Positions 23,028-38,851 of a DNA stretch of 64,000 nucleotides are shown one piece after another. Positions within the stretch are counted from its first letter, which is position 1; each line of letters opens with the position of its first letter. Origin of the DNA: Clostridia bacterium. Its GTDB lineage: Bacteria > Bacillota > Clostridia > Oscillospirales > CAG-382. Where the stretch lies: NCBI GenBank assembly GCA_017434845.1, contig JAFSGD010000060.1, forward strand, positions 5,862 to 69,861. The letters run 5' to 3'. The notes under the pieces were generated by a model. It saw only the letters and a program-made list of their open reading frames with translations. It searched no databases and was not told where the DNA came from. The position numbers were made by a program, and so were the translations under genes.

Positions 23028-23507
23028 ATGCTTATATTGGGAATTGATCCGGGGTTGGCAACGATAGGCTTCGGATTAGTGTTAAAAAGCGGTGATAAAT
23101 ACCGCGCGATCGAATACGGGGCAATAACCACTGCACCGAAGCAGATGATCGAAAAGCGCCTTTCGGATATTTACGACGATATGATCGAGCTGTTGACCCG
23201 CACCAAGCCCGATTGCATGGTGATAGAAGAGCTTTTCTTTAACAACAACACCACAACCGCCATTGACGTTTCGATGGCGCGCGGCGTTATTCTGCTTGCG
23301 GCTTACAAATGCGGTGTTGACATTTACGAATACACTCCGCTTGAGGTTAAAAGCTCGATTGTAGGCTACGGCAGAGCCGAAAAACAGCAGGTGCAATATA
23401 TGGTGCGCCTTATGCTTAACCTTGCTGAAACGCCCAAGCCCGACGACACCGCCGATGCGCTTGCGCTTGCGCTTTGCCACGGCACGAGAATGATTCCCAA
23501 AAGATAA
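23028..23507 (+). CDS. ruvC: Holliday junction resolvase
   Basis: ILGIDPG, IEELFF, GYGRAEK, DD.ADAL. Confidence 0.97.
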   Translation: MLILGIDPGLATIGFGLVLKSGDKYRAIEYGAITTAPKQMIEKRLSDIYDDMIELLTRTKPDCMVIEELFFNNNTTTAIDVSMARGVILLAAYKCGVDIYEYTPLEVKSSIVGYGRAEKQQVQYMVRLMLNLAETPKPDDTADALALALCHGTRMIPKR

Positions 23508-23531
23508 CGAAACAAGAAAGGAAGCACCGAT

Positions 23532-24128
23532 ATGATACATTACGTCAGCGGAAGGCTCGCAAAGCTTACCGGAAGCTATGCCGTTGTTGATTGCGGCGGC
23601 GTCGGCTTTAAAATAGGAATTTCTTTTTCAACAGGCGCAAAGCTTTCGCCGCTTTCGGGCAAAAACGTGCTTCTTTATACCTATATGGCTGTAAGCGAGG
23701 ACAACATGTCGCTTTACGGCTTCTTTGAAGAGGACGAACTCGAGCTTTTTAAAATGTTGATTTCGGTTTCGGGAGTCGGCCCGAAGGGAGCAATGTCTAT
23801 TCTCGGCACGCTCTCGCCCGATGAACTTCGTTCCGCGGTTGCCCACGGCGATGCGAAAACCATTGCCTCGGCGCAGGGAATCGGCTTGAAGACCGCACAA
23901 AAGCTTATTATCGAGCTTAAGGATAAGCTGGGCGCAGGCTCGGCGGAGATTCCCGCTTCGAGTGCCGCAAACAGCGAAAAGGTAACGCAGGTCGTTGATA
24001 CCCTTGCGCTCTACGGTTTCCCGCGCGCAAAGGTTATTGAAACGCTTAAAAAGCTTGATACCTCGCTTTCACTCGAGGAGCTTTTATCGCAAACGCTCAG
24101 AATTCTCGGAAAGGAGTCAGGACGCTAA
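23532..24128 (+). CDS. ruvA: Holliday junction branch migration protein A
   Basis: LYGF, VSGVGPK, GIGLKTA. Confidence 0.95.
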   Translation: MIHYVSGRLAKLTGSYAVVDCGGVGFKIGISFSTGAKLSPLSGKNVLLYTYMAVSEDNMSLYGFFEEDELELFKMLISVSGVGPKGAMSILGTLSPDELRSAVAHGDAKTIASAQGIGLKTAQKLIIELKDKLGAGSAEIPASSAANSEKVTQVVDTLALYGFPRAKVIETLKKLDTSLSLEELLSQTLRILGKESGR

Positions 24129-25208
24129 ATGCCCATTAATTCGAAAATACCCGATTATTCCGAAGATTATGATTTTGAGAGCCGACTGACGACCGCCGAA
24201 TTCACCGCAGAGGACGTTGACTCGGAGCTTTCGCTAAGACCGAAATCGCTTTCGGAATACGTGGGTCAGCAGAAGGTTAAGGATAACCTTTCGATATTTA
24301 TCAAAGCGGCGGCAACGCGCGGCGATTCGCTCGACCACGTTTTGCTTCACGGCCCTCCCGGCTTGGGTAAGACCACGCTTTCGTGCATTATCGCAGGCGA
24401 GCTCGGCGTTAACCTTAAGGTAACGAGCGGCCCTGCGATCGAAAAGGCAGGCGACCTTGCCGCACTTTTAACAACGCTTGAACGTAACGATATTCTTTTT
24501 ATCGACGAAATACACCGCCTGCCGAGGCAGGTTGAAGAGGTGCTTTATCCCGCAATGGAGGATTTCGCGCTCGATCTTATGATGGGCAAGGGTCCCTCGG
24601 CGCGTTCGATAAGAATTCCGCTTAAGCCCTTCACGCTCATCGGCGCAACCACCAGAGCAGGCCAGCTTTCTTCGCCGTTGCGCGACAGATTCGGAATGTC
24701 GTTTCGGCTTGAACTTTACACCCCCGAGGAGCTTTCGCTTATTATCACCCGTTCGGCAGGAATATTGGGAATTCCCATAACCGCCGACGGCTCTTATGAG
24801 ATCGCGTTGCGCTCGCGCGGAACGCCGCGAATTGCCAACCGCTTTTTAAAGCGCGTTCGCGATTTTGCAACCGTTAGCGGAAACGGCGTTATCGACTTCG
24901 ATATCACCCGAACCGCGCTTGATGCGCTTGAGGTTGATGCGCTCGGGCTCGATTCGGTCGACAGAAGAATGCTTGGCGCGATAATAAACCATTTCGGCGG
25001 CGGCCCCGTCGGATTGGAAACGCTTGCCGCGGTTATCGGCGAGGAAGCGGTTACGCTTGAGGACGTTTACGAGCCCTATCTGCTTCAGCTTGGATTCTTA
25101 AACCGCACCCCGCGCGGAAGATGCGCCACCGCAGGCGCTTACCGCCACCTTGGACTTGAAGTTCCCGACAAAATGGCCGAGCAGCTTAAGTTCACCGACA
25201 ATATTTGA
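24129..25208 (+). CDS. ruvB: Holliday junction branch migration ATPase B
   Basis: [24 protein letters not shown]. Confidence 0.97.
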
Positions 25209-25226
25209 AAAAACGGAGTTATATAA

Positions 25227-26090
25227 ATGTATTCTGCCGACAACTGGAAGGAATATCGCCTGCTTGACGCCGCAAACGGCGAAAGGCTTGAAAAATGGGG
25301 CGATTATATTCTCATCCGCCCCGACCCTCAGGTTATTTGGAGCGGCGAAAAAACACACCGCGGCTGGAAAAACGCAAACGGCATCTACCGCCGTTCGCGC
25401 TCGGGCGGCGGCGAATGGATAAAAAAAGAGGTTCCCGAGGAATGGATAATCTCCTACGGCGACCTCAGATTCGGCATTTCGCCGATGGGCTTTAAGCACA
25501 CGGGCTTGTTCCCCGAGCAGGCGGCAAACTGGGATTGGTTCTCGGAGCTTATTAAAAACAGCGGCCGCGAGATAAAGCTGCTTAACCTTTTTGCCTACAC
25601 GGGCGGCGCAAGCGTTGCCGCGGCAAAGGCAGGCGCGTTCGTTTGCCACGTTGATGCTTCGAAGGGCATCGTTGCAAAGGCAAAGCGCAACGCCGAACTT
25701 TCGGGGATTCCGCAAAACAAAATAAGATATATCGTTGACGATTGCTTCAAATTTGTTGAGCGCGAGATCAGACGCGGCAACAAATACGATGCCGTTATTC
25801 TCGACCCGCCCTCGTTCGGACGCGGTCCGGGCGGCGAAAAATGGGTTATCGAGGAATGTCTCGATCAGCTTGTTGGGCTGGCCAGCCAAGTGCTTTCCGA
25901 TCAGCCGCTTTTCGTGCTTTTGAATTCATACACCACGGGTCTCTCCCCTGCCGCAAACGGCTATGTGCTTCACAAGCACACCAAGCGCTTCGGCGGAAAG
26001 GTCGAAAGTGAAGAACTGGGAATTCCCGTTGAGGCAAGCGGAATCTGCCTGCCGTGCGGTGCTTCGAGCCGTTGGACTCCCGAAAAGTAA
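25227..26090 (+). CDS. Class I SAM-dependent methyltransferase (RlmI/RlmK-like)
   Basis: HTGLFPEQ, LNLFAYTG, DPPSFG. Confidence 0.9.
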   Translation: MYSADNWKEYRLLDAANGERLEKWGDYILIRPDPQVIWSGEKTHRGWKNANGIYRRSRSGGGEWIKKEVPEEWIISYGDLRFGISPMGFKHTGLFPEQAANWDWFSELIKNSGREIKLLNLFAYTGGASVAAAKAGAFVCHVDASKGIVAKAKRNAELSGIPQNKIRYIVDDCFKFVEREIRRGNKYDAVILDPPSFGRGPGGEKWVIEECLDQLVGLASQVLSDQPLFVLLNSYTTGLSPAANGYVLHKHTKRFGGKVESEELGIPVEASGICLPCGASSRWTPEK

Positions 26091-26161
26091 TAATTTTTAC
26101 AATCTTTCTAAACAAAAGCTTAAGATATATTGTATCTTAAATAAAAAAGGATTCTGTTGAA

Positions 26162-27013
26162 ATGTCGTTTATCGAAGCCAACGGGCTCGGATTTTCATAG
26201 TCGCCCGAAGAGCCCAAGGTGTTAAGCGGGCTTAACGTTAAAATAGAAAAAGGCAGCTATACCGCCATTCTCGGACACAACGGTTGCGGAAAAAGCACGC
26301 TTGCCAAGCTTTTGTGCGGCATTCTGTTGCCGACCGAGGGCAACGTTTCGGTTGCGGGAATGGACACCGCAAACGAAGAAAACGCCTTTGAAATACGTAA
26401 AAGATGCGGTATGGTCTTTCAAAACCCCGACAACCAGCTTGTTGCAAGCGTTGTTGAGGAGGATATTGCGTTTGCGCCCGAAAACCTCGGGCTCGCACGC
26501 GACGAGATAAGAAGGCGCGTTGACGAGGCTTTGGCAACGGTTGACATGAGCGATTATGCACGCCACGCCACCCACAAGCTTTCGGGTGGACAGAAGCAAA
26601 GAATTGCCATTGCGGGCGTTCTCGCAATGGGACCCGATTGCATTATATTCGACGAAGCCACCGCGATGCTCGACCCGACCGGCAGAAAAGAGATCGTTGC
26701 CGCAATGAAACGACTTAACAAGGAAATGGGCATGACCGTCGTTACGATAACCCATTATATGAACGAAGCGGTTGAGGCAGACAGAATAATCGTTATGAAT
26801 CAAGGCGAAATAATCGCCGACGGAACCCCCGAGGAAATATTCTCGCAGGTTGAAGTTTTGCATTCGGTTTCGCTTGACGTTCCGCAGGTAACCGAGCTTA
26901 TGTTTTTGCTCGAGCAGGACGGCTTCCCTCTCCCCAGAGGTATTCTTCATGCAATGGACGCCGCAGACGAGCTCGAAAAATTTATCGGAGAACAAAAAAA
27001 TGAACGCGCTTGA
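26162..27013 (+). CDS. ecfA1: ECF transporter ATPase 1; in-frame TAG at codon 13
   Basis: ATG at 26162 gives MSFIEANGLGFS*SPEEPKVL; GHNGCGKST, FQNPDNQ, LSGGQ, DEAT. Confidence 0.88.
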
Positions 27014-27854
27014 GTTTAAAAACGTTAGCGTTGTCTATGGAGAAGGAACTCCCTTTAAAAAGGCGGCGCTTGATAATATAAGCGTTTGCTTCCCCGAAAA
27101 GCAGATAACCGGGCTTATCGGCCACACCGGAAGCGGAAAAAGCACTCTTGCATCGCTTGCCAACGGGCTTTTAAAGCCCACAAGCGGCGAAGTATTGCTT
27201 TTCGGCGAAAACATTTGGGCGCAAAAGCGCGAAATGAAAAAGATTCGAAGCCGTGTGGGTCTTGTTTTTCAATATCCCGAATATCAGCTTTTTGACGAAA
27301 CGGTTGAAGCAGATATTTCGTTCGGCCCGAAAAACATCGGTCTTTCGGATGAAGAAATAAAAAAACGCGTCAGACTTGCCGCCGAATTTTGCGGACTTTC
27401 GCAAAAGGAGCTTAAGCGCTCGCCGTTTGAGCTTTCGGGCGGACAAAAGCGCCGTGCCGCCATTGCGGGCGTGCTTGCAATGAGGCCCGAGGTCTTGGTG
27501 CTTGACGAGCCCGCCGCAGGGCTTGACCCCAAGGGACGCGAGGAGATTTTGGGCGGTCTTACCGAATATAAAAACACCTACGGCGCCACACTGATCATTA
27601 TTTCACACAGTATGGAGGACGTCGCCCGTTATTCTGACAATATCGTCGTTATGAAAGAGGGCGAGGTTTATATGCAGGGCGCGCCCGAGGAGATATTCAT
27701 GCAGGCGGAAAAACTTTTTGATGCCGCACTCGACCTGCCCCAGATAACCAAGCTTTTCATCGAGCTGAAAAAACGCTCGCTTTGCCAAAGCACCGACGTT
27801 TATACCGTCGGATATGCAAAAAAAGAAATAGAAAAGATCATTAAAAATGCTTAA
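27000..27854 (+). CDS. ecfA2: ECF transporter ATPase 2
   Basis: YGEGTPF, GHTGSGKST, FQYPEYQLF, SPFELSGGQ. Confidence 0.95.
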   Translation: MNALEFKNVSVVYGEGTPFKKAALDNISVCFPEKQITGLIGHTGSGKSTLASLANGLLKPTSGEVLLFGENIWAQKREMKKIRSRVGLVFQYPEYQLFDETVEADISFGPKNIGLSDEEIKKRVRLAAEFCGLSQKELKRSPFELSGGQKRRAAIAGVLAMRPEVLVLDEPAAGLDPKGREEILGGLTEYKNTYGATLIIISHSMEDVARYSDNIVVMKEGEVYMQGAPEEIFMQAEKLFDAALDLPQITKLFIELKKRSLCQSTDVYTVGYAKKEIEKIIKNA

Positions 27855-28692
27855 AGACGTTACTTTTGGTCAATATTTTCCCGGTAACTCGCTGCTTCAC
27901 CGCACCGATCCGAGAATAAAAATAATATTGCTGATCGAATATCTCGTTCTGGTATTGGTTGCCGAAAGTTTGCCCGCGGTTGCGCTTTCGCTTTGCTTCA
28001 CGGCGTTTCTCATCGCCGTTTCGGGCGTTCGCTTCGGCATATTGATAAAATCGGTTAAGCCGTTGATATTCGTTTTGGCGTTTACGGCTGTTATAAACCT
28101 GTTTTTCACAAAGGGCGAATCCGAGCCGTTGCTCGAATGGAAATTCATCACCGTTTACAGCGAGGGCGTTCGAACTGCGGTTACGATGCTTATCCGCCTG
28201 CTTTCGATGGTGCTCGGAAGCGGAATCCTTATTTCGTTCACAACCAGCCCGCTTGAGCTTACCGATGCGATCGAGCGGTTGCTTAAACCGCTTAAGGCTA
28301 TTAAGGTTCCGGTTCACGAATTCGCGATGATGATGTCGATAGCGTTGCGTTTTATTCCGACGCTTATCGAAGAAACGAACAAGATCATTTCGGCACAGAA
28401 GGCGCGTTGCGCCGATTTTGAAAGCGGAAATATCATAAAAAGACTTAAGGCGCTTGTTCCCATTCTTATTCCCCTTTTCGTTTCGGCGATAAGGCGTGCC
28501 GAGGAGCTTGCCGACGCCATGGAATGCCGTTGTTATCGCGGCGGCGAGGGCAGAACAAAGCTTAAGGTTATGAAAACAAGACCCACCGATTTTGTATTTC
28601 TTGCATCGGTTACTCTGTTCACCGTTGCAATATTCTTTGTTAACATGATCGAATTTTCGGAGGTTATCGCATTTTGCGCGGATATATTCTGA
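27847..28692 (+). CDS. ecfT: ECF transporter T component
   Basis: DPR.K, ALRFIP, AQKAR, AMECR. Confidence 0.95.
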   Translation: MLKDVTFGQYFPGNSLLHRTDPRIKIILLIEYLVLVLVAESLPAVALSLCFTAFLIAVSGVRFGILIKSVKPLIFVLAFTAVINLFFTKGESEPLLEWKFITVYSEGVRTAVTMLIRLLSMVLGSGILISFTTSPLELTDAIERLLKPLKAIKVPVHEFAMMMSIALRFIPTLIEETNKIISAQKARCADFESGNIIKRLKALVPILIPLFVSAIRRAEELADAMECRCYRGGEGRTKLKVMKTRPTDFVFLASVTLFTVAIFFVNMIEFSEVIAFCADIF

Positions 28693-29408
28693 AAATAGCA
28701 TATAAGGGAACCAACTATTGCGGTTGGCAGGTTCAGCCCGAAAAGCCGACTGTTCAGGCGGCGGTTCAGGCGGCGTGCGAATCGGTTTTCGGCGTTGAAA
28801 CGTCGATAACCGGCTGCAGCAGAACCGATTCGGGCGTTCACGCAAAGGGCTTCGTCGCGCTTGCAAGCGGAAATCTGCCCGAGATTCCGCTCGCATCGCT
28901 TCCGCTTGCGTTAAACACCGCGCTTCCCTGCGACGTTGCTGTTATCGAAGCGGAAAATGCGCCCGAGGGATTCCACCCGCGCTATGATGCAAAGGGCAAG
29001 GAATACGTTTATTACATAAACAACAGCCGCATCAAAGACCCGTTTTCAGAGGAAACGGCATGGCTTTTTCCGAGAAAAATAAACGTTGAGCTTGCCGATT
29101 CGCTTTGCAAAGAGTTTATAGGCAGGCAGGATTTTGCCTCGTTTATGGCGGCAGGCTCGAAGATAACCGATACGGTGCGAACGGTCAGCGCCTTTTCGGC
29201 GGAAAGAAACGGCGATACCGTAATATTTAGGGTTTCTGCCGACGGTTTTCTGTATAATATGGTAAGAATAATGGTTGGAACGGTTGCCGAAAAGGCAAGC
29301 GGAACAGCTCTGCCCGATATTAAAGAAATTATCGCCGCGCGCGACCGCGCGAAAGCGGGAGTTACCGCACCCGCGAAGGGACTTTTTCTGAACAAGGTTT
29401 TTTATTGA
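28674..29408 (+). CDS. truA: tRNA pseudouridine(38-40) synthase
   Basis: Y.GWQ.Q, SRTDSGVHA, GFLYNMVR, TAPA.GL. Confidence 0.96.
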   Translation: MRGYILKIAYKGTNYCGWQVQPEKPTVQAAVQAACESVFGVETSITGCSRTDSGVHAKGFVALASGNLPEIPLASLPLALNTALPCDVAVIEAENAPEGFHPRYDAKGKEYVYYINNSRIKDPFSEETAWLFPRKINVELADSLCKEFIGRQDFASFMAAGSKITDTVRTVSAFSAERNGDTVIFRVSADGFLYNMVRIMVGTVAEKASGTALPDIKEIIAARDRAKAGVTAPAKGLFLNKVFY

Positions 29409-29446
29409 TTATTATATAAAAAAGCAAACGAAAGGAGGAATGGCAA

Positions 29447-30688
29447 ATGTCGGCCTTTTCGGTTTTTAAAGATAAAAAAGGTAAGCGAAACAAGCAGGAA
29501 ACGCCAACCGTTGAATCGCATTATATAAAGCTTGCGCGCAGAACGGCGTTTCTGCGATATACCTGTCTTGCGCTCGTTGCCGCGTTTGCGGTTTATTCCT
29601 TCTCGTTCCACAGCAACGAGCTTACGCTTGATAACTTCAGATATATGCTGAAATTTATAAACCTCGGCGACGAGGCTGATACCCCCACGGGAAGCCTTAT
29701 TGCCTTTGACGGAAGCGCAGGCAACCGCGGCATTGTTTACAAGGGCGACCTTGCGGTTTTGAACGAAAGCGGGCTTTCGATAACCGGCTGGGACGGCGAG
29801 ATACTTCACAAGGCGGCTTTCACGTTTGATCATCCGAAAATGGTTGAAAACGGAATCAATCTTTTCTGCTATGATATCGGCGGCAAGGATATAAGAGTGT
29901 TCAACTCTTATTCTCAGGTTTGGAGCCCCGAAACGCCGTTTGAATACCCGATATATTGGCTTTCTGCCTCGAAAAGCGGCGGATTTGCCGTTGTCAGCTC
30001 GGCAAAAAGTTATCGCTCTGCCGTTTACGTTTACGACAGCGCGTTCCGCATAGTTTATTCCCGCCTTTTCGGCGATAAATACGTTGATTTCGTTGCACTT
30101 TCCGACAGCGGCAACGAATTTATAACCGCCGCACACTATTCCGAAAACGGCAACCTCGTAACGATCGTTTCGCGCTTTAGGACCGACAGCGAAGAGGTTA
30201 TCTTCTCGGAAAAATTCATAGGCGAGATACCGCTCGGCATATATTACACAAGCAACGGTTATTGCCTTATGACGAGCGATGCTTTAAGGTTTTACAACAG
30301 CGACGATACCGTTAACGCCAAAGTAAGCTTTGAAAACCGCGAGCTTCTTTCGGGCAAGGTGTTTGACGAAAAGGCGCTTGTTTGCTATGGGCTTGACGGG
30401 CTTTCGGGCGGAACCGAGGCAATAATCTACCGCAACGACGGAAGCGTTGAATTCTCGAAGCGGTTTGATACCTCGCTTTCCGATTCGTTGATTTGCGGAA
30501 ACAAGCTTTATACGCTTTCGCCCGGCAGGCTTTCGATTTTCGAGATAGGAACCGAAAGTAAAAACATTTATTCGGTGCCCACGGCTTATTCATCGTTGGT
30601 GCCCGACGGCGAAAGAGTAATTCTTTTCTCGGAAAATCAAGCGGAATATTTCGAAGCCTCGGCTTTTGATAAGATTGAAGATAAGTAA
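29447..30688 (+). CDS. Membrane-anchored beta-propeller-like protein (DUF5711-like)
   Basis: One N-terminal TM helix then repeated beta strands (YDIGG, YRSAVYVYD); upstream of a CvpA-like gene. Confidence 0.65.
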   Translation: MSAFSVFKDKKGKRNKQETPTVESHYIKLARRTAFLRYTCLALVAAFAVYSFSFHSNELTLDNFRYMLKFINLGDEADTPTGSLIAFDGSAGNRGIVYKGDLAVLNESGLSITGWDGEILHKAAFTFDHPKMVENGINLFCYDIGGKDIRVFNSYSQVWSPETPFEYPIYWLSASKSGGFAVVSSAKSYRSAVYVYDSAFRIVYSRLFGDKYVDFVALSDSGNEFITAAHYSENGNLVTIVSRFRTDSEEVIFSEKFIGEIPLGIYYTSNGYCLMTSDALRFYNSDDTVNAKVSFENRELLSGKVFDEKALVCYGLDGLSGGTEAIIYRNDGSVEFSKRFDTSLSDSLICGNKLYTLSPGRLSIFEIGTESKNIYSVPTAYSSLVPDGERVILFSENQAEYFEASAFDKIEDK

Positions 30689-30702
30689 TAAAGGGAGATT
30701 GT

Positions 30703-31410
30703 ATGAGCTGGACTCTTGACATTGTTATAATTGTGATTTTTGCGATAACCATGTTTTTTGCCATAAAAAACGGATTTATCAAAACCGCTATAAGCGCGGC
30801 TTCGTTTATTGTTGCGATCGGCATAACCTTCTGTTTTGCGGGAACGCTTGCCGACGCAATGGTTTCAACCCCCATTTCCGAAAGGATCGAAGAGGCTACC
30901 GCGCAGAAGATCGAAGACGTTATTTTGGAAAGCTCTTCGGATGCAACCGAGCTTTTAAAGGGAAGCTCTGAAAGCTTCAACGCGCTTATTTCCGTTGCGG
31001 GCGTTGAGCTTTATGAGGTTGACGAATTTTTTACCGATTCCGAAAACGCTTCGCTTGAGCCTGCCGAAAGGCTTGCAAAAAAGATATCCGAGCCCATTAT
31101 TAAAACCATTGCGCTTATTATTTCGGTAGTTATACTTTTCTTCGGCTCGCGCATAATTCTTGCAATAGCCGCCTCGGTGCTCGATAAGATAGCAAAGCTT
31201 CCTATTTTAAAAAGTTGCAACAAGCTTTTGGGCGTTTTACTCGGCTTGGCGCTTGCGGTTGTTAGAATAAGCCTTTTCTGCTTTATTGCAGGCGTTTTGA
31301 TTAAAAACGCGGCGTTCTTGGGAAGCGATTATATTTCGGCGCTCGACCCCGATAATACCCTGCTGTTCAAGCTTTTCCAAAATTTAGATATTTTCGGCTT
31401 TTTCATTTAA
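30703..31410 (+). CDS. CvpA (colicin V production) family membrane protein
   Basis: LDIV...GF, and N.LLG.LLG in the C-terminal half. Confidence 0.8.
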   Translation: MSWTLDIVIIVIFAITMFFAIKNGFIKTAISAASFIVAIGITFCFAGTLADAMVSTPISERIEEATAQKIEDVILESSSDATELLKGSSESFNALISVAGVELYEVDEFFTDSENASLEPAERLAKKISEPIIKTIALIISVVILFFGSRIILAIAASVLDKIAKLPILKSCNKLLGVLLGLALAVVRISLFCFIAGVLIKNAAFLGSDYISALDPDNTLLFKLFQNLDIFGFFI

Positions 31411-31425
31411 CAAAGAGGTTTTAAA

Positions 31426-31965
31426 ATGAACGTGAAAAAACAGATACCGAATATTCTTTCGGTATTCAGACTGTTTATGATACCCGTTTTTGTGGTCTAT
31501 TATTTCAAATACACGGTTCTGCCAAAAACGCTTATTTCGGCAGGTGTTTTCGTGCTTGCATGGGTTACCGACGCGCTCGACGGTTATCTTGCGCGCCGCA
31601 ATAACTGGATAACCGACGTTGGCAAGCTTTTGGATCCGCTTGCCGACAAGCTGATGCAAATAACCGCCGCCGTCTGCTTTACGATCGATAACCGAATTTT
31701 CTTGATGTTTCTTATACCGCTTGTGCTTAAAGAGCTGTTAATGCTTATCGGTGCGATCATTATTATGAAAAACAAAAAAGCCGCCGTTCAGGCAAGCTGG
31801 TACGGCAAGGTTGCAACGATTTTGCTGTTCGTTTGCGCGTTCGCTCGCATTATTGTAAGAGGCAATGCGGTTTTTGATACGGTTATTGCTTCGGTAATGC
31901 TTTTAACAATGCTTTTTGCGCTTGTTATGTATTATTTAAAGGATTTCAAGGGCAAATATATATAA
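31426..31965 (+). CDS. pgsA: CDP-alcohol phosphatidyltransferase (PgsA-like)
   Basis: PNILS..R and D..DG..AR...G..LD..AD. Confidence 0.88.
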   Translation: MNVKKQIPNILSVFRLFMIPVFVVYYFKYTVLPKTLISAGVFVLAWVTDALDGYLARRNNWITDVGKLLDPLADKLMQITAAVCFTIDNRIFLMFLIPLVLKELLMLIGAIIIMKNKKAAVQASWYGKVATILLFVCAFARIIVRGNAVFDTVIASVMLLTMLFALVMYYLKDFKGKYI

Positions 31966-32001
31966 GATCAGTTTTTTCACAAACAAAGAGGTGATACCCA
32001 A

Positions 32002-34290
32002 ATGGAATTTAAAAGATGCTCGCGCTGTAAGATCAGACCCGCGATTATTTTCGTTCAGAAAAACGTTGCCGGAAAGGTAACGAGCGAGGGCTTTTGCATT
32101 AAATGCGCTCAGGAGCTCGGCATTAAGCCGATTGACGATATTATAAATCAAATGAACATGAGCTCCGAGGATATCGAGGCGCTCAACGAAGGCATGATGG
32201 GCGGTATGATACCGTTCGAAAACGAAAACGAGGGCGACGACGAGGGCAGAGCTCCCTCAATAGACCTTAATTCATTTTTCGGCGGCGAAAACAAGCCCGC
32301 TGAGCAGGGCGAGCGCCCCTCGGAAAACGAAGCTAAGGCAAACGCAGGCAAGCAACAGAAAAAGCGCGGAATGAGCTATCTTCGTGATTTTTGCATTTGT
32401 CTTACCGAGCGTGCGCGCGAGGGCAAGCTTGATAACATTATCGGCAGAGACAACGAGCTTGAGCGTGTTATTCAAATTCTTACCCGCCGTCAGAAGAACA
32501 ACCCCTGCCTTATCGGCGAGCCCGGTGTCGGTAAGACCGCAGTTGCCGAGGCTTTGGCGCAAAAGGTTGCAAAGGGCGAGGTTCCATATAAGCTCAAGGA
32601 TAAAGAAATCTATCTTGTTGATATGACCGCCATCGTTGCGGGAACGCAGTTCCGCGGTCAATTCGAAAACAGAATGCGCGGCCTTATCGAAGAAACCAAA
32701 AAAGCGGGAAACGCAATTTTGGTTATCGACGAGGTGCATTCCATTGTCGGCGCAGGCAACGCCGAGGGCGGTATGAACGCCGCAAATATTCTTAAGCCCG
32801 CGCTTTCACGCGGCGAGATTCAGCTTATCGGCGCAACAACGCTTAACGAATACCGCCAATATATCGAAAAGGACGCCGCGCTTGAGCGCCGTTTCCAGCC
32901 CGTTATGATCGGAGAGCCCTCGATCGAAGACAGCATAAAGATTCTTCAGGGCATTAAAAAATATTATGAAGCACACCACGGAATCAACATTCCCGATTAT
33001 CTGCTTCGCAGAATGGTAACCCTTTCCGAGCGCTATATAACCGACCGATTCCTGCCCGACAAGGCGATCGACCTTATGGACGAGGCTTGCTCGCACATGG
33101 CAATGCATTCCCCTATCATAAACGAAATTGCTCTTTTGAGCGATGAAATAAAAAAGCTTCGCGGCGAGCTTGCAACGCTTGAGGGCAAGGAAAGCCCCGA
33201 GGAAGAGGATTATCGCCGCATTGCCGACCTTAAAACCGCTCTTTTACAGAAAGAAGCACGCTTTAACGAGCTTTCGGCAGAGCGTGATTCGCTTGAACTG
33301 AGCGATGCCGAAATCGCAAGAGTTATTGAGGTTTGGACAGGTGTTCCCGCAACCAACGTCAGCGAAAACGAGTTCGTTAAGATAGAACGCATCGAAGAAG
33401 AAATCAAGAACCGCATTGTCGGTCAGGACGATGCCGTTGCCTCGGTGGCAAAGGCGATTCGCCGTTCGCGTGCGGGAATCTCTTATAAAAAGAAGCCTGT
33501 TTCGTTTATTTTCGCAGGCAGCACGGGCGTTGGCAAAACCGAGCTTGTTAAGGTGCTTGCGCGCTATCTGTTCGATTCGCCCGAGGCGCTTATTCGTCTT
33601 GACATGAGCGAATTCATGGAAAAGCATTCAGTTTCGCGAATTATCGGTTCGCCTCCCGGCTACGTCGGCTATGACGAGGCGGGTCAGCTTACCGAAAAGA
33701 TAAGAAGAAAGCCCTATACCGTTATTCTCTTCGATGAGATCGAGAAGGCTCACCCCGACGTTATGAATATTCTGCTTCAGATTCTTGATGACGGCAGAAT
33801 AACCGATGCCCACGGCAAAGAGGTCAATTTCGAAAACACGGTTATTATAATGACAACCAACGCAGGCAGCAGCGACAGCACCTCGATTGCGGGCTTTGGC
33901 GAAAGCTTCAGCCAAAACGATCGCTCGAAGGTTATGAAGGCGCTTGAAGCCTTCCTACGCCCCGAGTTTATCAACCGCGTTGACGAGATCGTTGTATTCA
34001 ACCGCCTGAGCAAAGAGAACTTCGGCGATATCTGCCGCATCATGCTTGGCGATCTGCAATCGGTTCTTTCCGAAAAGGGCATTACGTTTGATTACGACAA
34101 CAGCCTTATCGGTTATCTTTCCGACAAGGGCTATTCGATTAAATACGGTGCAAGAAACCTGCGCCGTCTTATACAAACCGATATTGAAGACCCGCTTGCA
34201 ACTGAGATCGTTGCATCCTACCGCGAGCCCATTAAAAAGGTTTTTGCTTCGGTTTGCGACGGCAAGGTTGATTTGAAAACCGAAAAATAA
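32002..34290 (+). CDS. clpC: Hsp100/Clp ATPase (ClpC/ClpE-type) with an N-terminal C4 zinc finger
   Basis: CSRC...CIKC; two AAA+ modules ([16 protein letters not shown]); ClpP-binding IAGF loop; YGARNLRR. Confidence 0.85.
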
Positions 34291-34317: not shown

Positions 34318-37158
34318 ATGGCAAACAACGGAAATGAAAAATTGAAAATTAAGACCGTTTCCGGCGAAGCGGGCGAAGAGAACATAACCTTCTCGCCCGA
34401 GGAGATGCAACCCTTTGAGGTTGCCGAGGCGCTGGAAAGCGACCTTATCGACGGCAAGACCGAAAAGCAGGTTCGCAGAGCAAAAAGGCTTTTCGGCGTT
34501 AACGAAACCAAGGGCGAGTTCAGGCTTTCGTTCCGCGAAAGCTTAAGAAATCAGCTCAAAGGTATGACCCCGCTGTTTCTTATGATATGCTCGTTTATAA
34601 TGTATCTCTTCCGCACCGACGAGCCGACTTATCTTGTTATGTCGCTTGTTATTGCGGCAATAACGGTTATCAACGCCGTTGCCGAGAAGCGCGCCTCGAT
34701 AGCGTTGCGTGTTCCCAAAAAATATTCCTCGCTTAAAGCCAAGGTCATCAGAAACGGCGAGGAGATAACCGTTGACAGCCGACAGCTTGTTCCGGGCGAC
34801 GTTATCTTTATTGAAGAGGGCGTTATGGTGCCCGCCGACTGCCGACTTATCGACGATATGGGGCTTTCGGTTATGGAAACGCACGTTAGCGGAAACGAAG
34901 GAAGCGTTGTTAAAAACAGCCGCTATATCGCCCGCGACGGCGCCGAGCCGATTTGCGCAAACATGGTTTATGCGGGAAGCATTGTTACCGCAGGCCACGC
35001 CAGCGCAATAGTTTGCCGAATAGGCAAGGAAACGCTTATTCGCAAAATGCGTGCGGGAACCGAAAACTACACTCCCGATATTATCAAATACGTTCAAAAC
35101 CTTTGCCGATTCATTTCGGTTGCATCGGTTGCGATTTGCTTTTTGCTTCTGTTTATCGGTGTTGCCGCAGGCGCAGACATAACAAATTGGTTCATTTGTG
35201 CGCTTGCCATCGGCGCGGCATCGCTTTGCGACAGCATGGTTTCGCTTTGCGCTTCTTCGCTCGGCTTCGGTGCGAAGAAAATGACCGAAGACGGAATGGT
35301 TATTAAAAACTACGGCTGTGTGCAAAAGCTTGCCAAGGTGAACACGATCATGTGCGGTAAAAGCCTTGCCTTTCCGCCGAAGCGGATTTCGCTTACAGGG
35401 CTTTATTTCTCGGGTAAAAGCTACGACCGCGAAAAGCGCCCCGACGAAACCGCCGAAGAGCTTTTGAAGCTTATGCTGGTTTGCTCGGATGCAAGAAAAA
35501 TAACCGCCGCCGAAAAGAAAAAAACTCGCGGACTTCCCGAATACAAGGGGCTTCCGCTCGACGATGCGATAGTTGATTATTTCGGCGAATGGAACAAAAG
35601 CATCGGCGATATTCGCGAGCAATATATAAGAATGGATGCCGAATACAGCCTTTCGGGCGATATTTCGAGAATGCTTGCGCTTCATAACGGCAAAAACACC
35701 GTTATCGTTCGCGGCTCGCCCGAAAACATTCTTTCGCGCTGTGCGGGATATTCGCTCGACGGAACCGATTATAAAATAAGCGATTTCACGCGGAAAAAGA
35801 TTCTTTCTGCCGCCGAGGATCTTGCACGAACCAACAGCTTTTTGGTTGCGATTGCCTGCGGCGAGACCAACGCCGAATCGTTGCGCGATATCGACGTTGA
35901 AGAACGGCTGATATTCAAGGGCTTCGTTTCGTTTGCAAGCTCGCTTGACGCGGGCGTTGCATCTTCGGTTTACCGTTGCGAAAGCGCGGGAATCGAAACC
36001 GTTTTGAATTCGAACGACGCATATTATACCGCGCTTAATTCGGCGAAAAGCGCGGGAATCATAACCGACGAATCTCAGCTTATAACCGCCGAGCAGTATC
36101 GCTCGATAAGCGAGGGCTTAAGAATCGCAAATTGCCCCTATTACCGCTTGTTCCTTAACGTTGACGACAGCGAATGGCATGATATTATTAAAATGAGGCG
36201 CGACAGCGGCAAGGTTGCCGCAGTTACCGCCGAGCGAATAAACGAGCTTCCGATAATGAGCGAAGCCGACGTTTCGATCGTGCCCGAAAGCTCGTGCGAT
36301 ACGCTTAGGCAAACCGCCGACGCCATGCTTCTCGGAAGCGGAATAAACCTTATTGCCGACGGTATACTTAACGCAAAAACGATTTGCCGAAGGATCTTTT
36401 CGGTTATATCCTATCTGCCCGCCGGAATATTGATGATGTTTATTGCATCGGTGTTCTGCGCCTGCTATGACCAATCGCCCGCGCTTAGAGCGCAAGACGT
36501 TCTGTTCGGCGGAATAATATTCAATTTGGCTTTCGCCTTTGCGCTCGCATTCGAACCGCGCCACGTTAAAAATCTGCGCGATACCTTTGTTTTCGACAGC
36601 ATCAAGCCCAAAATCAACGATTTTATCTACCCCTTGATGTTTGCCATGGGCGGAGGCATAACTCTGTTTATCGTCAGCGCATCAACGCAAAGCTATACCT
36701 GCTCGCTCATCGCACTTACGATCATGCTGTTTATTCATGCTGCAACCGTGGCAAGCCACGGCGGCATTATCGCAACAAGACGCTTCGGCAGCCGCTTGCT
36801 TTGGCTTTGCGGCTTCGGCGCGGCGATAGTTTTGGCTGTCCTTATGTTCACGGGGCTCGTAAGCAGCGTTTTCGGCTATGGCTTGCCGAACGTAACAAAG
36901 CTTATTATTGCGCTTTCGTTCAGCGCGGGATATTGCGTTTTGAGCCAGATCTTGCGTTATTTCATCTCTTCAAAGGGCAAAAAGACATCGGAGCCCGAAG
37001 AGGAAGAAAACGAAGAAGACGATCACTCCGAACGCGCCGGCGATTCGTTCAACGATATGTTCGAAGAAGAAGACCTGCCCGACGATATCGCGGCAGATGA
37101 ACCGGAAGAAGAAAAAAATAATATAGAAATCCAAGAAAGGAGCAACGAAAATGACTAA
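34318..37158 (+). CDS. P2-type cation-transporting ATPase homologue lacking the catalytic motifs
   Basis: VIRNG, LVPGD, VPADCR, NMVYAGS, RGSPE and a full TM layout, but DKTGT is replaced by GKSLA. Confidence 0.85.
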   Translation: MANNGNEKLKIKTVSGEAGEENITFSPEEMQPFEVAEALESDLIDGKTEKQVRRAKRLFGVNETKGEFRLSFRESLRNQLKGMTPLFLMICSFIMYLFRTDEPTYLVMSLVIAAITVINAVAEKRASIALRVPKKYSSLKAKVIRNGEEITVDSRQLVPGDVIFIEEGVMVPADCRLIDDMGLSVMETHVSGNEGSVVKNSRYIARDGAEPICANMVYAGSIVTAGHASAIVCRIGKETLIRKMRAGTENYTPDIIKYVQNLCRFISVASVAICFLLLFIGVAAGADITNWFICALAIGAASLCDSMVSLCASSLGFGAKKMTEDGMVIKNYGCVQKLAKVNTIMCGKSLAFPPKRISLTGLYFSGKSYDREKRPDETAEELLKLMLVCSDARKITAAEKKKTRGLPEYKGLPLDDAIVDYFGEWNKSIGDIREQYIRMDAEYSLSGDISRMLALHNGKNTVIVRGSPENILSRCAGYSLDGTDYKISDFTRKKILSAAEDLARTNSFLVAIACGETNAESLRDIDVEERLIFKGFVSFASSLDAGVASSVYRCESAGIETVLNSNDAYYTALNSAKSAGIITDESQLITAEQYRSISEGLRIANCPYYRLFLNVDDSEWHDIIKMRRDSGKVAAVTAERINELPIMSEADVSIVPESSCDTLRQTADAMLLGSGINLIADGILNAKTICRRIFSVISYLPAGILMMFIASVFCACYDQSPALRAQDVLFGGIIFNLAFAFALAFEPRHVKNLRDTFVFDSIKPKINDFIYPLMFAMGGGITLFIVSASTQSYTCSLIALTIMLFIHAATVASHGGIIATRRFGSRLLWLCGFGAAIVLAVLMFTGLVSSVFGYGLPNVTKLIIALSFSAGYCVLSQILRYFISSKGKKTSEPEEEENEEDDHSERAGDSFNDMFEEEDLPDDIAADEPEEEKNNIEIQERSNEND

Positions 37159-37446: not shown

Positions 37447-37920
37447 ATGGCTAAGAAACCCGGATTGATTTCTGAATTCAAGGCATTTATCACCAAAGGT
37501 AACATCCTCGACATGGCTGTCGGCGTTATCATGGGCGGTGCGTTCGGTAAGATCGTTTCCTCGCTCGTTGCCGATATTATCATGCCCGCTATCGGCGCGC
37601 TTTGCAACACCAAATCGCTTTCCGACCTTAAATACGTTATCACCGAAGCAACCCTCGACGAAGCAGGCGCTGTTGTATCTGCCGAGGTTGCTATCAAATA
37701 CGGTCAGTTCATCATGTACATAGTCGATTTCCTTATCGTTGCTATCTGCATGTTCCTTGTTATCCGCTTCTTCATGAAGATGAGAACCAGACTTGAAAAC
37801 CTTAAGAAGAAGGAAGCTGAAGAGGAAGCTCCCGCGGCTCCCGCAGAGCCCACCGTTGAAGAAAAGACTCTCGCAACCCTCAACGATATCAAGGCTCTTC
37901 TTGAAAAGAACAACAAATAA
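37447..37920 (+). CDS. mscL: Large-conductance mechanosensitive channel
   Basis: EFKAFI.KGN.LDMAVGV..G.AFGKIV.SLV.DIIMP; YGQF. Confidence 0.96.
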   Translation: MAKKPGLISEFKAFITKGNILDMAVGVIMGGAFGKIVSSLVADIIMPAIGALCNTKSLSDLKYVITEATLDEAGAVVSAEVAIKYGQFIMYIVDFLIVAICMFLVIRFFMKMRTRLENLKKKEAEEEAPAAPAEPTVEEKTLATLNDIKALLEKNNK

Positions 37921-38804
37921 TGGCTGAATACCTTATCGGTATTGACGGCGGCGGAAGCAAAACCGATTTTTTGCTTTGCGACAAACAGCTTAACGAAAAG
38001 GCGCGCCGCTTTGCAGGGCGCTCGAACCCCAACGATATCGGAATCGATGCGGTGGCCGAGCTTATTAAAGAAAACGTTCTTGCTCTGCTTTCGGAAAACG
38101 GCGTTTCGGCAAGCGAAATTTCTGCCGCGTTTGCGGGCATTGCGGGTGCTTCTAACGACGATAACGTCGTTCGGCTTACCGCCGCTTTGAAAAGTGTTCT
38201 TCCCAACGCAAAGGCCGAGGCCTTTCACGATGGCATAAACGTGCTCTACGGCGCGTTTCCGTATGAAGACGGCGTTAGCATTATTTGCGGAACGGGCTCT
38301 TCCTGCTTTATTAAAAAGGGCGAAGAGATCATTCGCATCGGCGGCTACGGCAGCTTTGACCTTTCGGGAAACGGCTATGAGATAGGCAGAGCGGGGCTTG
38401 CGCACGCACTTAAAACCATTGACGGCAGAGCCGAATTCGGTATTATGGATGAGCTTATTGCCGAGCGTGTGGGAAACGACTTTCTTGTTGCGCTCGACAA
38501 AATGCTTATAATGACGAAAAACGAGCTCGCCTCGTTTGCGCCAACCGTTTTTGAAGCCGCAAGCCGCGGCGACGATGCGGCGCTTGCAATAATCGACGAA
38601 AATATGGATTATATCGCCGAGCTCATCAACCGCGCGGGCGTTTACTTTAAAAACGATTATAAGGTTGCGCTTGCGGGCGGAATAATGAAAAGCGAGATTG
38701 CGGTTTCGCTTCTTTCAACCAAGCTTAACAGCCGAGCAAGGCTTATTAAAAGCGAGATTGCTCCCGTTTTCGGTGCCGCCGCAAGAGCTTTGCAACTATT
38801 ATGA
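37920..38804 (+). CDS. BadF/BadG/BcrA/BcrD ATPase-family sugar kinase (GlcNAc/MurNAc kinase-like)
   Basis: GIDGGGSKT, GIAG, ICGTGS, GGYG, LAGG. Confidence 0.85.
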   Translation: MAEYLIGIDGGGSKTDFLLCDKQLNEKARRFAGRSNPNDIGIDAVAELIKENVLALLSENGVSASEISAAFAGIAGASNDDNVVRLTAALKSVLPNAKAEAFHDGINVLYGAFPYEDGVSIICGTGSSCFIKKGEEIIRIGGYGSFDLSGNGYEIGRAGLAHALKTIDGRAEFGIMDELIAERVGNDFLVALDKMLIMTKNELASFAPTVFEAASRGDDAALAIIDENMDYIAELINRAGVYFKNDYKVALAGGIMKSEIAVSLLSTKLNSRARLIKSEIAPVFGAAARALQLL

Positions 38805-38819
38805 CCGATATACGACCAA

Positions 38820-38851
38820 AAAGAGCAGTGGGATTTTTCCACTGCTCTTTT
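38820..38851 (+). terminator. Intrinsic terminator
   Basis: AAAGAGCAGTGG-gatttt-TCCACTGCTCTTTT. Confidence 0.75.

Follow-up and report, generated by a model that had tools for sequence, protein, structure and literature searches.

What remains of an ion pump when its chemistry is gone, and why would a cell keep it? The aspartyl-phosphate cycle is the defining feature of P-type ATPases, and the question is raised by a gene in a stretch of 64,000 nucleotides (nt) from a Clostridia bacterium (GTDB lineage Clostridia; Oscillospirales; CAG-382; GenBank assembly GCA_017434845.1, contig JAFSGD010000060.1, positions 5,862 to 69,861, forward strand), which we refer to as the window. The gene encodes a protein of 946 amino acids (aa) that resembles a P2-type ATPase over its whole length while every catalytic motif has been replaced, and it is therefore called the dead ATPase in the following. 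An earlier note on this DNA, made from the sequence alone, had taken the protein for a selected pseudo-enzyme rather than a product of decay. Our computational analysis shows that it belongs to a large family of intact, similarly altered proteins confined to one clade of three bacterial families, and that it is very probably a selected protein without catalytic function. That it is also a pseudo-pump of single origin which acts together with its neighbours, the unfoldase ClpE and a small DUF1858 protein, is a reading that we put forward tentatively.

Catalytic motifs and predicted fold of the window ATPase

The open reading frame (ORF) starts with ATG and is free of stops, and its G+C content, both overall (GC) and at third codon positions (GC3), matches that of the neighbouring genes, in line with the host-like codon usage noted earlier. 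With Pfam, the protein matched E1-E2_ATPase (PF00122, 3e-27), the Cation_ATPase N-domain (PF13246, 8e-5) and Cation_ATPase_N (PF00690, 3e-4), together with a sub-threshold match to Cation_ATPase_C. The HAD-type hydrolase domain PF00702 is common to all active P-type ATPases; for the window ATPase no match to it was found at E≤0.01. The top NCBIfam models were the PMR1-type Ca-ATPase (TIGR01522, 169 bits against a cut-off of 798) and the SERCA-type (TIGR01116, 150 bits against a cut-off of 703), and the score is 4-5 times under every family cut-off.

The nearest relative by sequence in the PDB is the Listeria Ca2+-ATPase LMCA1 (6zhf), with an E-value of 1.4e-52 over residues 45-747, and the motif replacements were read from a residue-by-residue alignment to this protein. 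All the substitutions that the earlier note had listed are present in the alignment, at the coordinates given in Table 1. Neither the Asp of DKTGT nor the Glu of TGES is there, and the hinge motif GDGxND is lost together with the Lys of the phosphorylation (P) domain. The ion site of P2A pumps has likewise changed, as the Glu of PEGL in transmembrane helix 4 (TM4) and the Asn and Asp of TM6 are all replaced. From the same alignment, the Phe and Lys of the nucleotide pocket are not kept either. Because Gly stands at the position of the phosphorylated Asp, the dephosphorylating Glu is absent and both hinge Asps and the conserved Lys are missing, a phosphoenzyme cycle would be impossible; judged by its sequence, the window protein is without the residues for the canonical cycle.

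The fold, on the other hand, is predicted to be that of a complete pump. An AlphaFold2 model built on a shallow family alignment of 19 sequences (alignment A2) reached a mean predicted local distance difference test score (pLDDT) of 81 and a predicted TM-score (pTM) of 0.76, and it contains ten long membrane helices and folded actuator (A), nucleotide-binding (N) and P domains. The fourth membrane helix is broken at residues 301-303. Disorder is limited to residues 1-23 and to the tail formed by residues 886-946, where pLDDT is below 50 and 27 of the 61 residues are Asp or Glu, so that the acidic C-terminal tail described earlier is indeed there. When the model was compared with the PDB by Foldseek, the top matches were P2-type pumps only (LMCA1, SPCA1, SERCA1/2 and the Na,K- and H,K-ATPases; E 1e-46 to 1e-42). 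By TM-score the model was most similar to E1-type states (0.75-0.77; 4kyt, 9evc), a resemblance to which we attach no reading as to functional state.

Taken together, the ORF, Pfam, the model and Foldseek bear out the complete P2-ATPase layout proposed in the earlier note. P2A Ca2+-ATPases of the LMCA1, SERCA and SPCA/PMR1 types are the best matches in both sequence and structure, and the window protein shares with them the N-terminal domain, an A domain with LVPGD and VPADxR, the ten TM helices, KGxPE and a Rossmann-like P domain. Unlike these pumps, it has its phosphoenzyme motifs replaced, lacks PF00702, carries changed ligands in TM4 and TM6 and falls into a separate clade in the tree described below. 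Its A, N and P domains, its membrane domain of 10 helices and its homology to pumps make it a P2A-type ATPase by descent and fold; by every hallmark of the active enzyme that we tested, it is not one.

Conservation and selection in the family

A word-indexed search of 5.8 billion proteins, in which 7995 candidates were scored and 503 had E≤0.001, returned at least 101 homologue clusters (P0002-P0102; 99-33% identity, 2098-500 bits) without PF00702 in the precomputed domains, among the 120 listed. Below P0102 the scores fall sharply to 196 bits or less, and these matches are true pumps with PF00702 (P0103-P0121). The earlier note had suggested looking for homologues without the Asp of DKTGT, and in none of the 102 sequences P0001-P0102 was DKTG[TS] or GDGxND found. 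In a scan of species-representative genomes we obtained 49 loci of the window type, here called type A (L001-L049), with 29-76% identity to the window protein, all from metagenome-assembled genomes (MAGs) labelled Eubacteriales, Oscillospiraceae, Clostridia or 'Ruminococcus sp.'; another 31 loci (L050-L080; 22-33% identity, mostly from other phyla) were placed outside the analysis. Four type-A loci run off contig ends and one (L046) is cut at its N-terminus. The remaining 44 are complete, every one with an intact ORF of 857-1057 aa, and together with the window they make up the 45 sequences used for the motif tallies.

At the position of the phosphorylated Asp we found Gly in 21 sequences, Asp in 15, Pro in 5, Ser in 2, and Cys and Glu in one each. 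The loss of this Asp, as first noted, thus holds for the window (Gly347) and is not uniform in the family; in the 15 members with Asp-Lys the other catalytic motifs are lost as well, and T-G-T never follows. The Gly of DKTGT and the Thr next to it are kept in 0/45. The Glu of TGES is replaced by Val (13), Lys (8), Ser (7), Asn (3) and others, and is present in 8, none of which has the Asp, so that the two residues are combined in 0/45. The Lys of the P domain has become Trp in 42 and Leu in 3, and of the two hinge Asps the first is kept in 0/45 and the second in 2/45. In TGD the Asp is kept in 39/45 and the Gly in 2/45. The membrane and N-domain positions are more uniform: Asp305 occupies the TM4 Glu position in 34/45, TM6 has Asn736 in 45/45 and Gly732 in 44/45, and (R/K)GxPE is found in 45/45, with Arg (29) or Lys (16) first. 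Since identical substitutions recur across a large conserved family, the motif loss is far beyond what chance would give. New features are conserved in place of the old ones. A motif T-x-M-C-x-K-x-x-A-F-P-P, whose Cys (Cys346) is invariant in alignment A2, surrounds the former phosphorylation site; also conserved are (R/K)GxPE-x-(I/V)L-x-x-C of the N domain, where G466, P468 and E469 are invariant in A2, and AGIE-x-V.

An enzyme of non-canonical chemistry could in principle use another nucleophile, for example the invariant Cys346, or the Asp where it is present, and the TGD Asp retained by most members would fit such a scheme. However, all 45 sequences are without the residues that hold Mg2+ and phosphate in place (the first hinge Asp, the Lys, the DKTGT Gly and the next Thr), the Asp position varies freely between G, D, P, S, C and E, and two related dead types (B and C, see below) have no Cys at the equivalent position. 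We consider this explanation very improbable.

The earlier note had proposed the ratio of nonsynonymous to synonymous substitution rates (dN/dS) as a check on decay, and the result is far from neutral. Estimated by the Nei-Gojobori method, dN/dS of the dead ATPase was 0.044-0.189 in 33 pairs at ≥72% aa identity, and that of clpE from the same genomes was 0.031-0.142. Many of the pairs have dS above 1, which makes the ratios rough, and the 12 pairs with dS below 0.9 also give 0.04-0.19; one pair (L019-L020) yielded no dS estimate. Catalytic residues are lost, the frame is intact and selection is purifying, the combination expected of a pseudo-enzyme. A decaying pseudogene or an annotation artefact would account for the lost motifs and for the faster divergence of the dead ATPase as compared to ClpE (29-76% vs. 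62-85% identity to the window at the same loci). It would not account for intact frames in 44 of 44 complete loci, for the low dN/dS, for a confident fold prediction, for homologues down to 33% identity or for two further dead types kept across families, and we regard its probability as negligible. The preference of the earlier note for selection over decay is thereby supported.

Selection is not restricted to a part of the protein. Within each dead type, each domain is about as conserved as among 25 sampled real pumps; in relative terms, conservation is higher in the cytoplasmic N-terminus and in the A and N domains, and lower in the P domain and TM5-6. Constraint thus acts on the entire multi-domain architecture and not only on a membrane stub.

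The window genome also encodes three P-type ATPases with DKTGT, TGES and GDGxND intact, two of which carry PEGL, and hence the dead ATPase is not a substitute for a lost pump. Their presence raises another explanation, in which the dead protein is the regulatory or structural partner of an active P2-type pump in a heteromer. Many pseudo-enzymes modulate their active relatives, the genome has P2-type pumps with all four motifs (DKTGT, TGES, GDGVND and PEGL), bacterial P-type dimers such as that of MgtA (8uy8) are among the structural matches, and both headpiece and membrane domain are conserved as a whole. The real pumps lie on other contigs, though, and none was found beside the dead gene in the type-A, -B and -C loci that were read, which leaves such a partnership improbable.

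Distribution and origin of the dead clade

When 1.84 billion representative proteins were searched with a profile, 21 scored ≥516 bits, all type A, followed by a step down to 410 bits. The next 129 matches comprised 91 with both DKTG[TS] and GDGxND, 31 with neither, 6 with the first only and 1 with the second only. Most of the matches without either motif belong to two further dead types, B and C, and the finding is thus broader than first noted, with three deeply diverged dead lineages in a clade of three families. Type B has a phosphorylation site of approximately C-I-I-I-N-S-G-K-Y-F, and type C has C-L-I-V-P-K-E-x-x-F at this site, S-M-S-E in TM4 and G-L-x-x-D in TM6. The three types have lost different parts of the catalytic site: the P-domain Lys is retained in types B and C, Asp-Lys survives in deep branches of type A, and Gly is found in the lineage of the window. 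Gly732 of TM6 is specific to the dead clade and common to all three types.

The distribution was surveyed in 200 sampled genomes of the GTDB order of the window plus the window genome, representing 30 families (here coded f1, f16 and so on). Type A is confined to the family of the window, f1, where 8 of 10 genomes have it at >780 bits; a ninth (G170) has a very divergent version of 1095 aa, and in the tenth (G103) there is no dead ATPase after ClpE and no match at 1e-60. Type B is present in 10/10 genomes of family f16 and type C in 4/10 of family f21. At the same thresholds, the remaining 27 families sampled gave no match to the profile of any type. The G170 version (L122:1196-4483, - strand) lies directly after ClpE; its Pfam match to E1-E2_ATPase is only 3.7e-08, at its C-terminus there is an additional membrane region that weakly matches PFF1_TM/Hid1, and its branch in the tree is long (1.81).

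In a maximum-likelihood (ML) tree of the ATPases (72 rows), the three dead types and the real pumps all form clades with a starred support of 100, the real pumps forming one side of such a branch, with no resolution at the centre; the tree comes from a quick search under LG+G4, has no outgroup and no approximately unbiased (AU) test, and long-branch attraction is possible. In the ClpE tree (69 rows), the families f1, f16 and f21 fall into a single clade with a starred support of 99, which holds all 16 carriers of a dead ATPase in the tree and 4 non-carriers (G103 and three f21 genomes). L047, with an over-extended ORF, and two f6 rows (L131 and L132, shorter and without the N-terminal ribbon) were omitted from this tree. 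As the ClpE tree groups the three families independently of the ATPase tree, it supports a single origin. The simplest history that these sequences suggest would be one origin at the base of the three-family clade, followed by a few losses and by a decay of the residual catalytic site that differed between lineages.

The pattern across the three types also bears on the idea that the protein works on its own, as a sensor of cations, nucleotides, lipid or the tension of the membrane, or as a regulated leak or channel, with ClpE and DUF1858 as mere neighbours. Polar ion-site residues persist in type A (Asn736 in all and Asp305 in most sequences), TM4 is broken in the model, (R/K)GxPE is universal in type A, and type C retains the TM4 Glu and the TM6 Asp; moreover, the putative operon includes the membrane-related genes MscL, PgsA and CvpA. 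On the other hand, the ion-site residues differ between the types, with Asp/Asn in type A, Glu/Asp in type C and both mostly lost in type B, and for this reason an ion-binding function shared by the whole clade is unsupported. In types B and C the motif of the N domain has degenerated, and the window protein has kept neither the Phe nor the Lys of the nucleotide pocket. A stand-alone sensor or conduit therefore appears unlikely.

Gene neighbourhood and proposed function

All genes around the dead ATPase are on the + strand, in the order ruvC-ruvA-ruvB-methyltransferase-ecfA-ecfA'-ecfT-truA-DUF5711-CvpA-PgsA-ClpE-dead ATPase-DUF1858-MscL-BadF/BcrA ATPase. The earlier note placed the gene between a Zn-finger Clp ATPase and an overlapping DUF1858 gene; both are there, but the Clp protein is ClpE-like and not ClpC. 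It has the N-terminal CxxC...CxxC Zn ribbon, the two AAA+ modules and the ClpB_D2-small domain in common with ClpE of Bacillota, and its IAGFGE loop is similar to the ClpP-docking loop; ClpP is encoded in the genome. The downstream protein matches DUF1858 and TIGR03980 over its full length (7e-20 and 3e-25), the latter being the 'hybrid cluster protein-associated redox disulfide domain', and has the invariant pattern GMHCLGCP..R.E...AC..H, that is, a CxxC, a further Cys and two His.

The synteny that the earlier note wanted examined is conserved in type A. ClpE is directly upstream in 47/47 examinable loci, with a median gap of 29 nt (range 3-285 nt), and DUF1858 is directly downstream in 43/49, where its start overlaps the ATPase stop or lies ≤46 nt after it in 43/43. 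As for the six loci in which DUF1858 was not seen, four end within the ATPase and one (L036) ends about 440 nt after it, while L047 lacks DUF1858. Type B follows ClpE directly in 8/10 genomes (gaps of -4, 0 and 12 nt in three loci read), and type C in 4/4, within an ecf-truA-DUF5711-CvpA-ClpE block; in the five type-B and type-C loci read, the gaps to ClpE range from -4 to 16 nt. In two type-B genomes (genus g46) the gene is located away from ClpE and has DUF1858 immediately downstream. To look at the reverse relation we read the regions downstream of ClpE in 60 genomes from 27 of the 30 families (f4, f10 and f11 were outside this sample). A ClpE ORF was recognised in 59 (none in L174), and among these a P-type homologue follows ClpE in only four regions, from f1 and f16; other families have unrelated genes there, for example YfhO, HflX or prolyl oligopeptidase.

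In the window, the Shine-Dalgarno sequence AAAGGAG and the ATG of DUF1858 lie within the last codons of the dead-ATPase tail, and the sole strong terminator between 29000 and 39600 is the one after the BadF-family gene. Because the junctions are very short or overlapping and there is a single terminator downstream, we infer that the dead ATPase would be co-transcribed with ClpE and DUF1858 and, in many genomes, translationally coupled to them. Translational coupling is typical of proteins that act together. The end of the tail is conserved in close relatives as ERS(N/D).. (window 37130-37158), which coincides with the Shine-Dalgarno sequence and start of DUF1858; since these are encoded there, the conservation of ERS in the protein probably reflects a constraint on the nucleotides.

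The mechanism that we prefer can be outlined as follows. A homologue of the P2A type, similar to Ca2+ pumps, has kept the 10-helix membrane domain and the A, N and P domains without running a phosphoenzyme cycle. It would have been under purifying selection since the base of the clade, as the remaining catalytic motifs decayed lineage by lineage. Ion pumping would be no part of its role. Instead, the dead pump may be a membrane-embedded, non-catalytic platform or regulator that, for example, places or controls ClpE, or ClpE with ClpP, at the membrane, and the DUF1858 protein may serve as a small redox- or metal-responsive accessory. Such a specific partnership with ClpE and DUF1858 is the role that we favour, although we hold it at well below even odds.

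Several observations weigh against the partnership. It is deduced from gene order. ClpE with the same Zn ribbon is encoded in 199 of the 201 genomes of the order, most of which have no dead ATPase, and only 4 weak alignment columns separate the ClpEs with a dead neighbour from those without (17 vs. 55), a difference for which relatedness suffices. The block ecfA-ecfA'-ecfT-truA-DUF5711-CvpA-(PgsA)-ClpE is itself conserved and the dead ATPase sits at its edge, so the adjacency to ClpE may in part be inherited gene order at the border of a stable block. As the three families form one clade, the adjacency counts once and not three times. DUF1858 was absent downstream of the dead ATPase in the three type-C and three type-B loci read. 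Shortly before the ATPase start, still within the end of clpE, there is a promoter-like site (10/12 matches), and separate transcription is therefore possible. Finally, all carriers are MAGs, with no cultured strain among them. A complex prediction for residues 24-885 of the dead ATPase (alignment A2) with DUF1858 (alignment A3) scored 0.00, which speaks neither for nor against binding. Upstream of clpE no classical CtsR operator was found; at 3 mismatches the window has 3 matches to the consensus, all away from clpE, where chance would give 6.6.

A bolder variant is that dead pump and ClpE together would make up an unknown machine for membrane-protein quality control, in which the pump serves as a passive site of extraction coupled to a motor. 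Much as P5A-type ATPases handle transmembrane helices, the pump-derived membrane domain could offer a lateral cleft or a docking site in the bilayer. ClpE, alone or with ClpP, encoded 27 nt upstream, would then supply the ATP-driven pulling that the pump fold has lost, and DUF1858 might act as a thiol or metal switch. We judge this variant to be improbable.

Comparison with known systems

To our knowledge, no free-standing full-length P-type ATPase has been described that abandoned the cycle and yet remains under selection, and none from bacteria was found in the literature searched, a search whose coverage did not extend to most subscription journals or to TCDB. The nearest described precedent is the P4-ATPase (flippase) module of the guanylate cyclases (P4GC) of alveolates and stramenopiles, in which the DKTGT Asp and the A-domain Glu are altered in some lineages (Cryptosporidium, P4GC-beta, gregarines and Tetrahymena), with the authors raising a possible loss of ATPase activity (PMC13466520). 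In Plasmodium GC-alpha, the Asp is present and appears essential (PMC7858053). The P4GC module of those lineages and the dead ATPase have in common that the P-type fold is retained although the DKTGT Asp and the A-domain Glu are altered. The P4GC module, however, is eukaryotic, of P4 type and fused to a cyclase, whereas the dead ATPase is bacterial, free-standing, derived from P2A and without an output domain.

As to the neighbours, we know of no membrane partner of ClpE, and none was found in the literature search. Judged by titles, the papers found on DUF1858 concern selenoproteins, Fe-S or nitrogen-oxide contexts, and P-type ATPases appear in none of these titles.

At least three deeply diverged dead lineages have thus been maintained within a single clade of gut and environmental Clostridia, in every case as a complete multi-domain protein, and this persistence argues for a second use of the pump architecture that needs no ATP hydrolysis of its own. 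The linkage to ClpE and to a mini-protein rich in Cys and His offers a lead into membrane-associated proteostasis or stress sensing in abundant uncultured gut anaerobes. There is also a consequence for annotation. Public records name family members "cation-transporting P-type ATPase", "Ca2+-transporting ATPase" or "hypothetical protein", and a Protein Atlas look-up gave generic cation-ATPase clusters only; records called "cation-transporting P-type ATPase" in these genomes are probably not cation transporters.

Table 1. Location of the dead ATPase gene, its altered motifs and the surrounding genes in the window.
Feature	Position	Strand	Basis and remarks
Conserved upstream genes DUF5711, CvpA and PgsA (CDP-alcohol phosphatidyltransferase)	29447..31965	+	Pfam; synteny
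ClpE-type AAA+ unfoldase, 762 aa, stop 27 nt before the dead-ATPase start	32002..34290	+	Pfam, NCBIfam, sequence
Dead P2A-type ATPase homologue, type A of the dead clade	34318..37158	+	ORF, Pfam/NCBIfam, LMCA1 alignment, AlphaFold2, Foldseek
A-domain loop SGNE (residues 191-194) in place of TGES; Asn at the Glu position	34888..34899	+	LMCA1 alignment
TM4 CDSM (residues 304-307) in place of PEAL (PEGL motif)	35227..35238	+	LMCA1 alignment; helix break at 301-303 in the model
MCGKSLA (residues 345-351) in place of CSDKTGT; GKSLA corresponds to DKTGT, with Gly347 at the position of the phosphorylated Asp	35350..35370	+	LMCA1 alignment
N-domain RGSPE (residues 465-469), retained counterpart of KGAPE; KGGPD in LMCA1 (KGxPE motif)	35710..35724	+	LMCA1 alignment
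SND (residues 565-567) in place of P-domain TGD	36010..36018	+	LMCA1 alignment
AERINE (residues 638-643) in place of hinge GDGVND	36229..36246	+	LMCA1 alignment
TM6 FGGIIFN (residues 730-736); Gly732 and Asn736 in place of the ion-site Asn and Asp of pumps	36505..36525	+	Family tallies
Acidic disordered C-terminal tail, residues 886-946	36973..37155	+	pLDDT <50; 27/61 residues Asp or Glu
DUF1858/TIGR03980 small protein, 64 aa	37151..37345	+	Overlaps the ATPase stop by 8 nt; Pfam/NCBIfam
MscL mechanosensitive channel	37447..37920	+	Pfam/NCBIfam; downstream in most type-A loci; probably same operon
BadF/BcrA-family ATPase, last gene before the strong terminator	37920..38804	+	Pfam; synteny
Terminator-like hairpin, 15 pairs, followed by a T-rich tail	38819..38851	+	Likely end of the transcription unit

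Additional observations

Partly degenerate motifs were also seen in seven sequences (P0193, P0209, P0221, P0230, P0240, P0241 and P0260) that lie inside the normal clade of P2A pumps, examples being VDKTGV/GNKASD, ADKGGT/GKSVID, LGKTET/GGCIDD, THKTGA/GKRLSD and TEKTGV/GKDIND. Erosion of the catalytic site in bacterial P2A-like pumps may thus have occurred several more times, independently of the dead clade. In genome G045, an ORF of 882 aa with none of the three motifs (L115:25-2673, + strand) is located a few kb upstream of the type-B dead ATPase; it gave no BLAST match to the window proteins at 1e-5.

The gene block from ruvCAB to ClpE (window 23028-34290; L001-L049, L117-L119) keeps its order across families at about 57-60% ClpE identity, and DUF5711 and CvpA are always found between truA and (PgsA-)ClpE. 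The ClpE-like ORFs of family f6 (L131 and L132) are 726 and 705 aa long as called, and begin with a low-complexity region rich in Asn and Pro in which there is no CxxC ribbon; this may be due to a different start site or to a real loss of the Zn finger. Downstream of the dead ATPase, the first base of the BadF/BcrA start codon (window 37920) is also the final base of the MscL ORF, which suggests that these two genes are translationally coupled.

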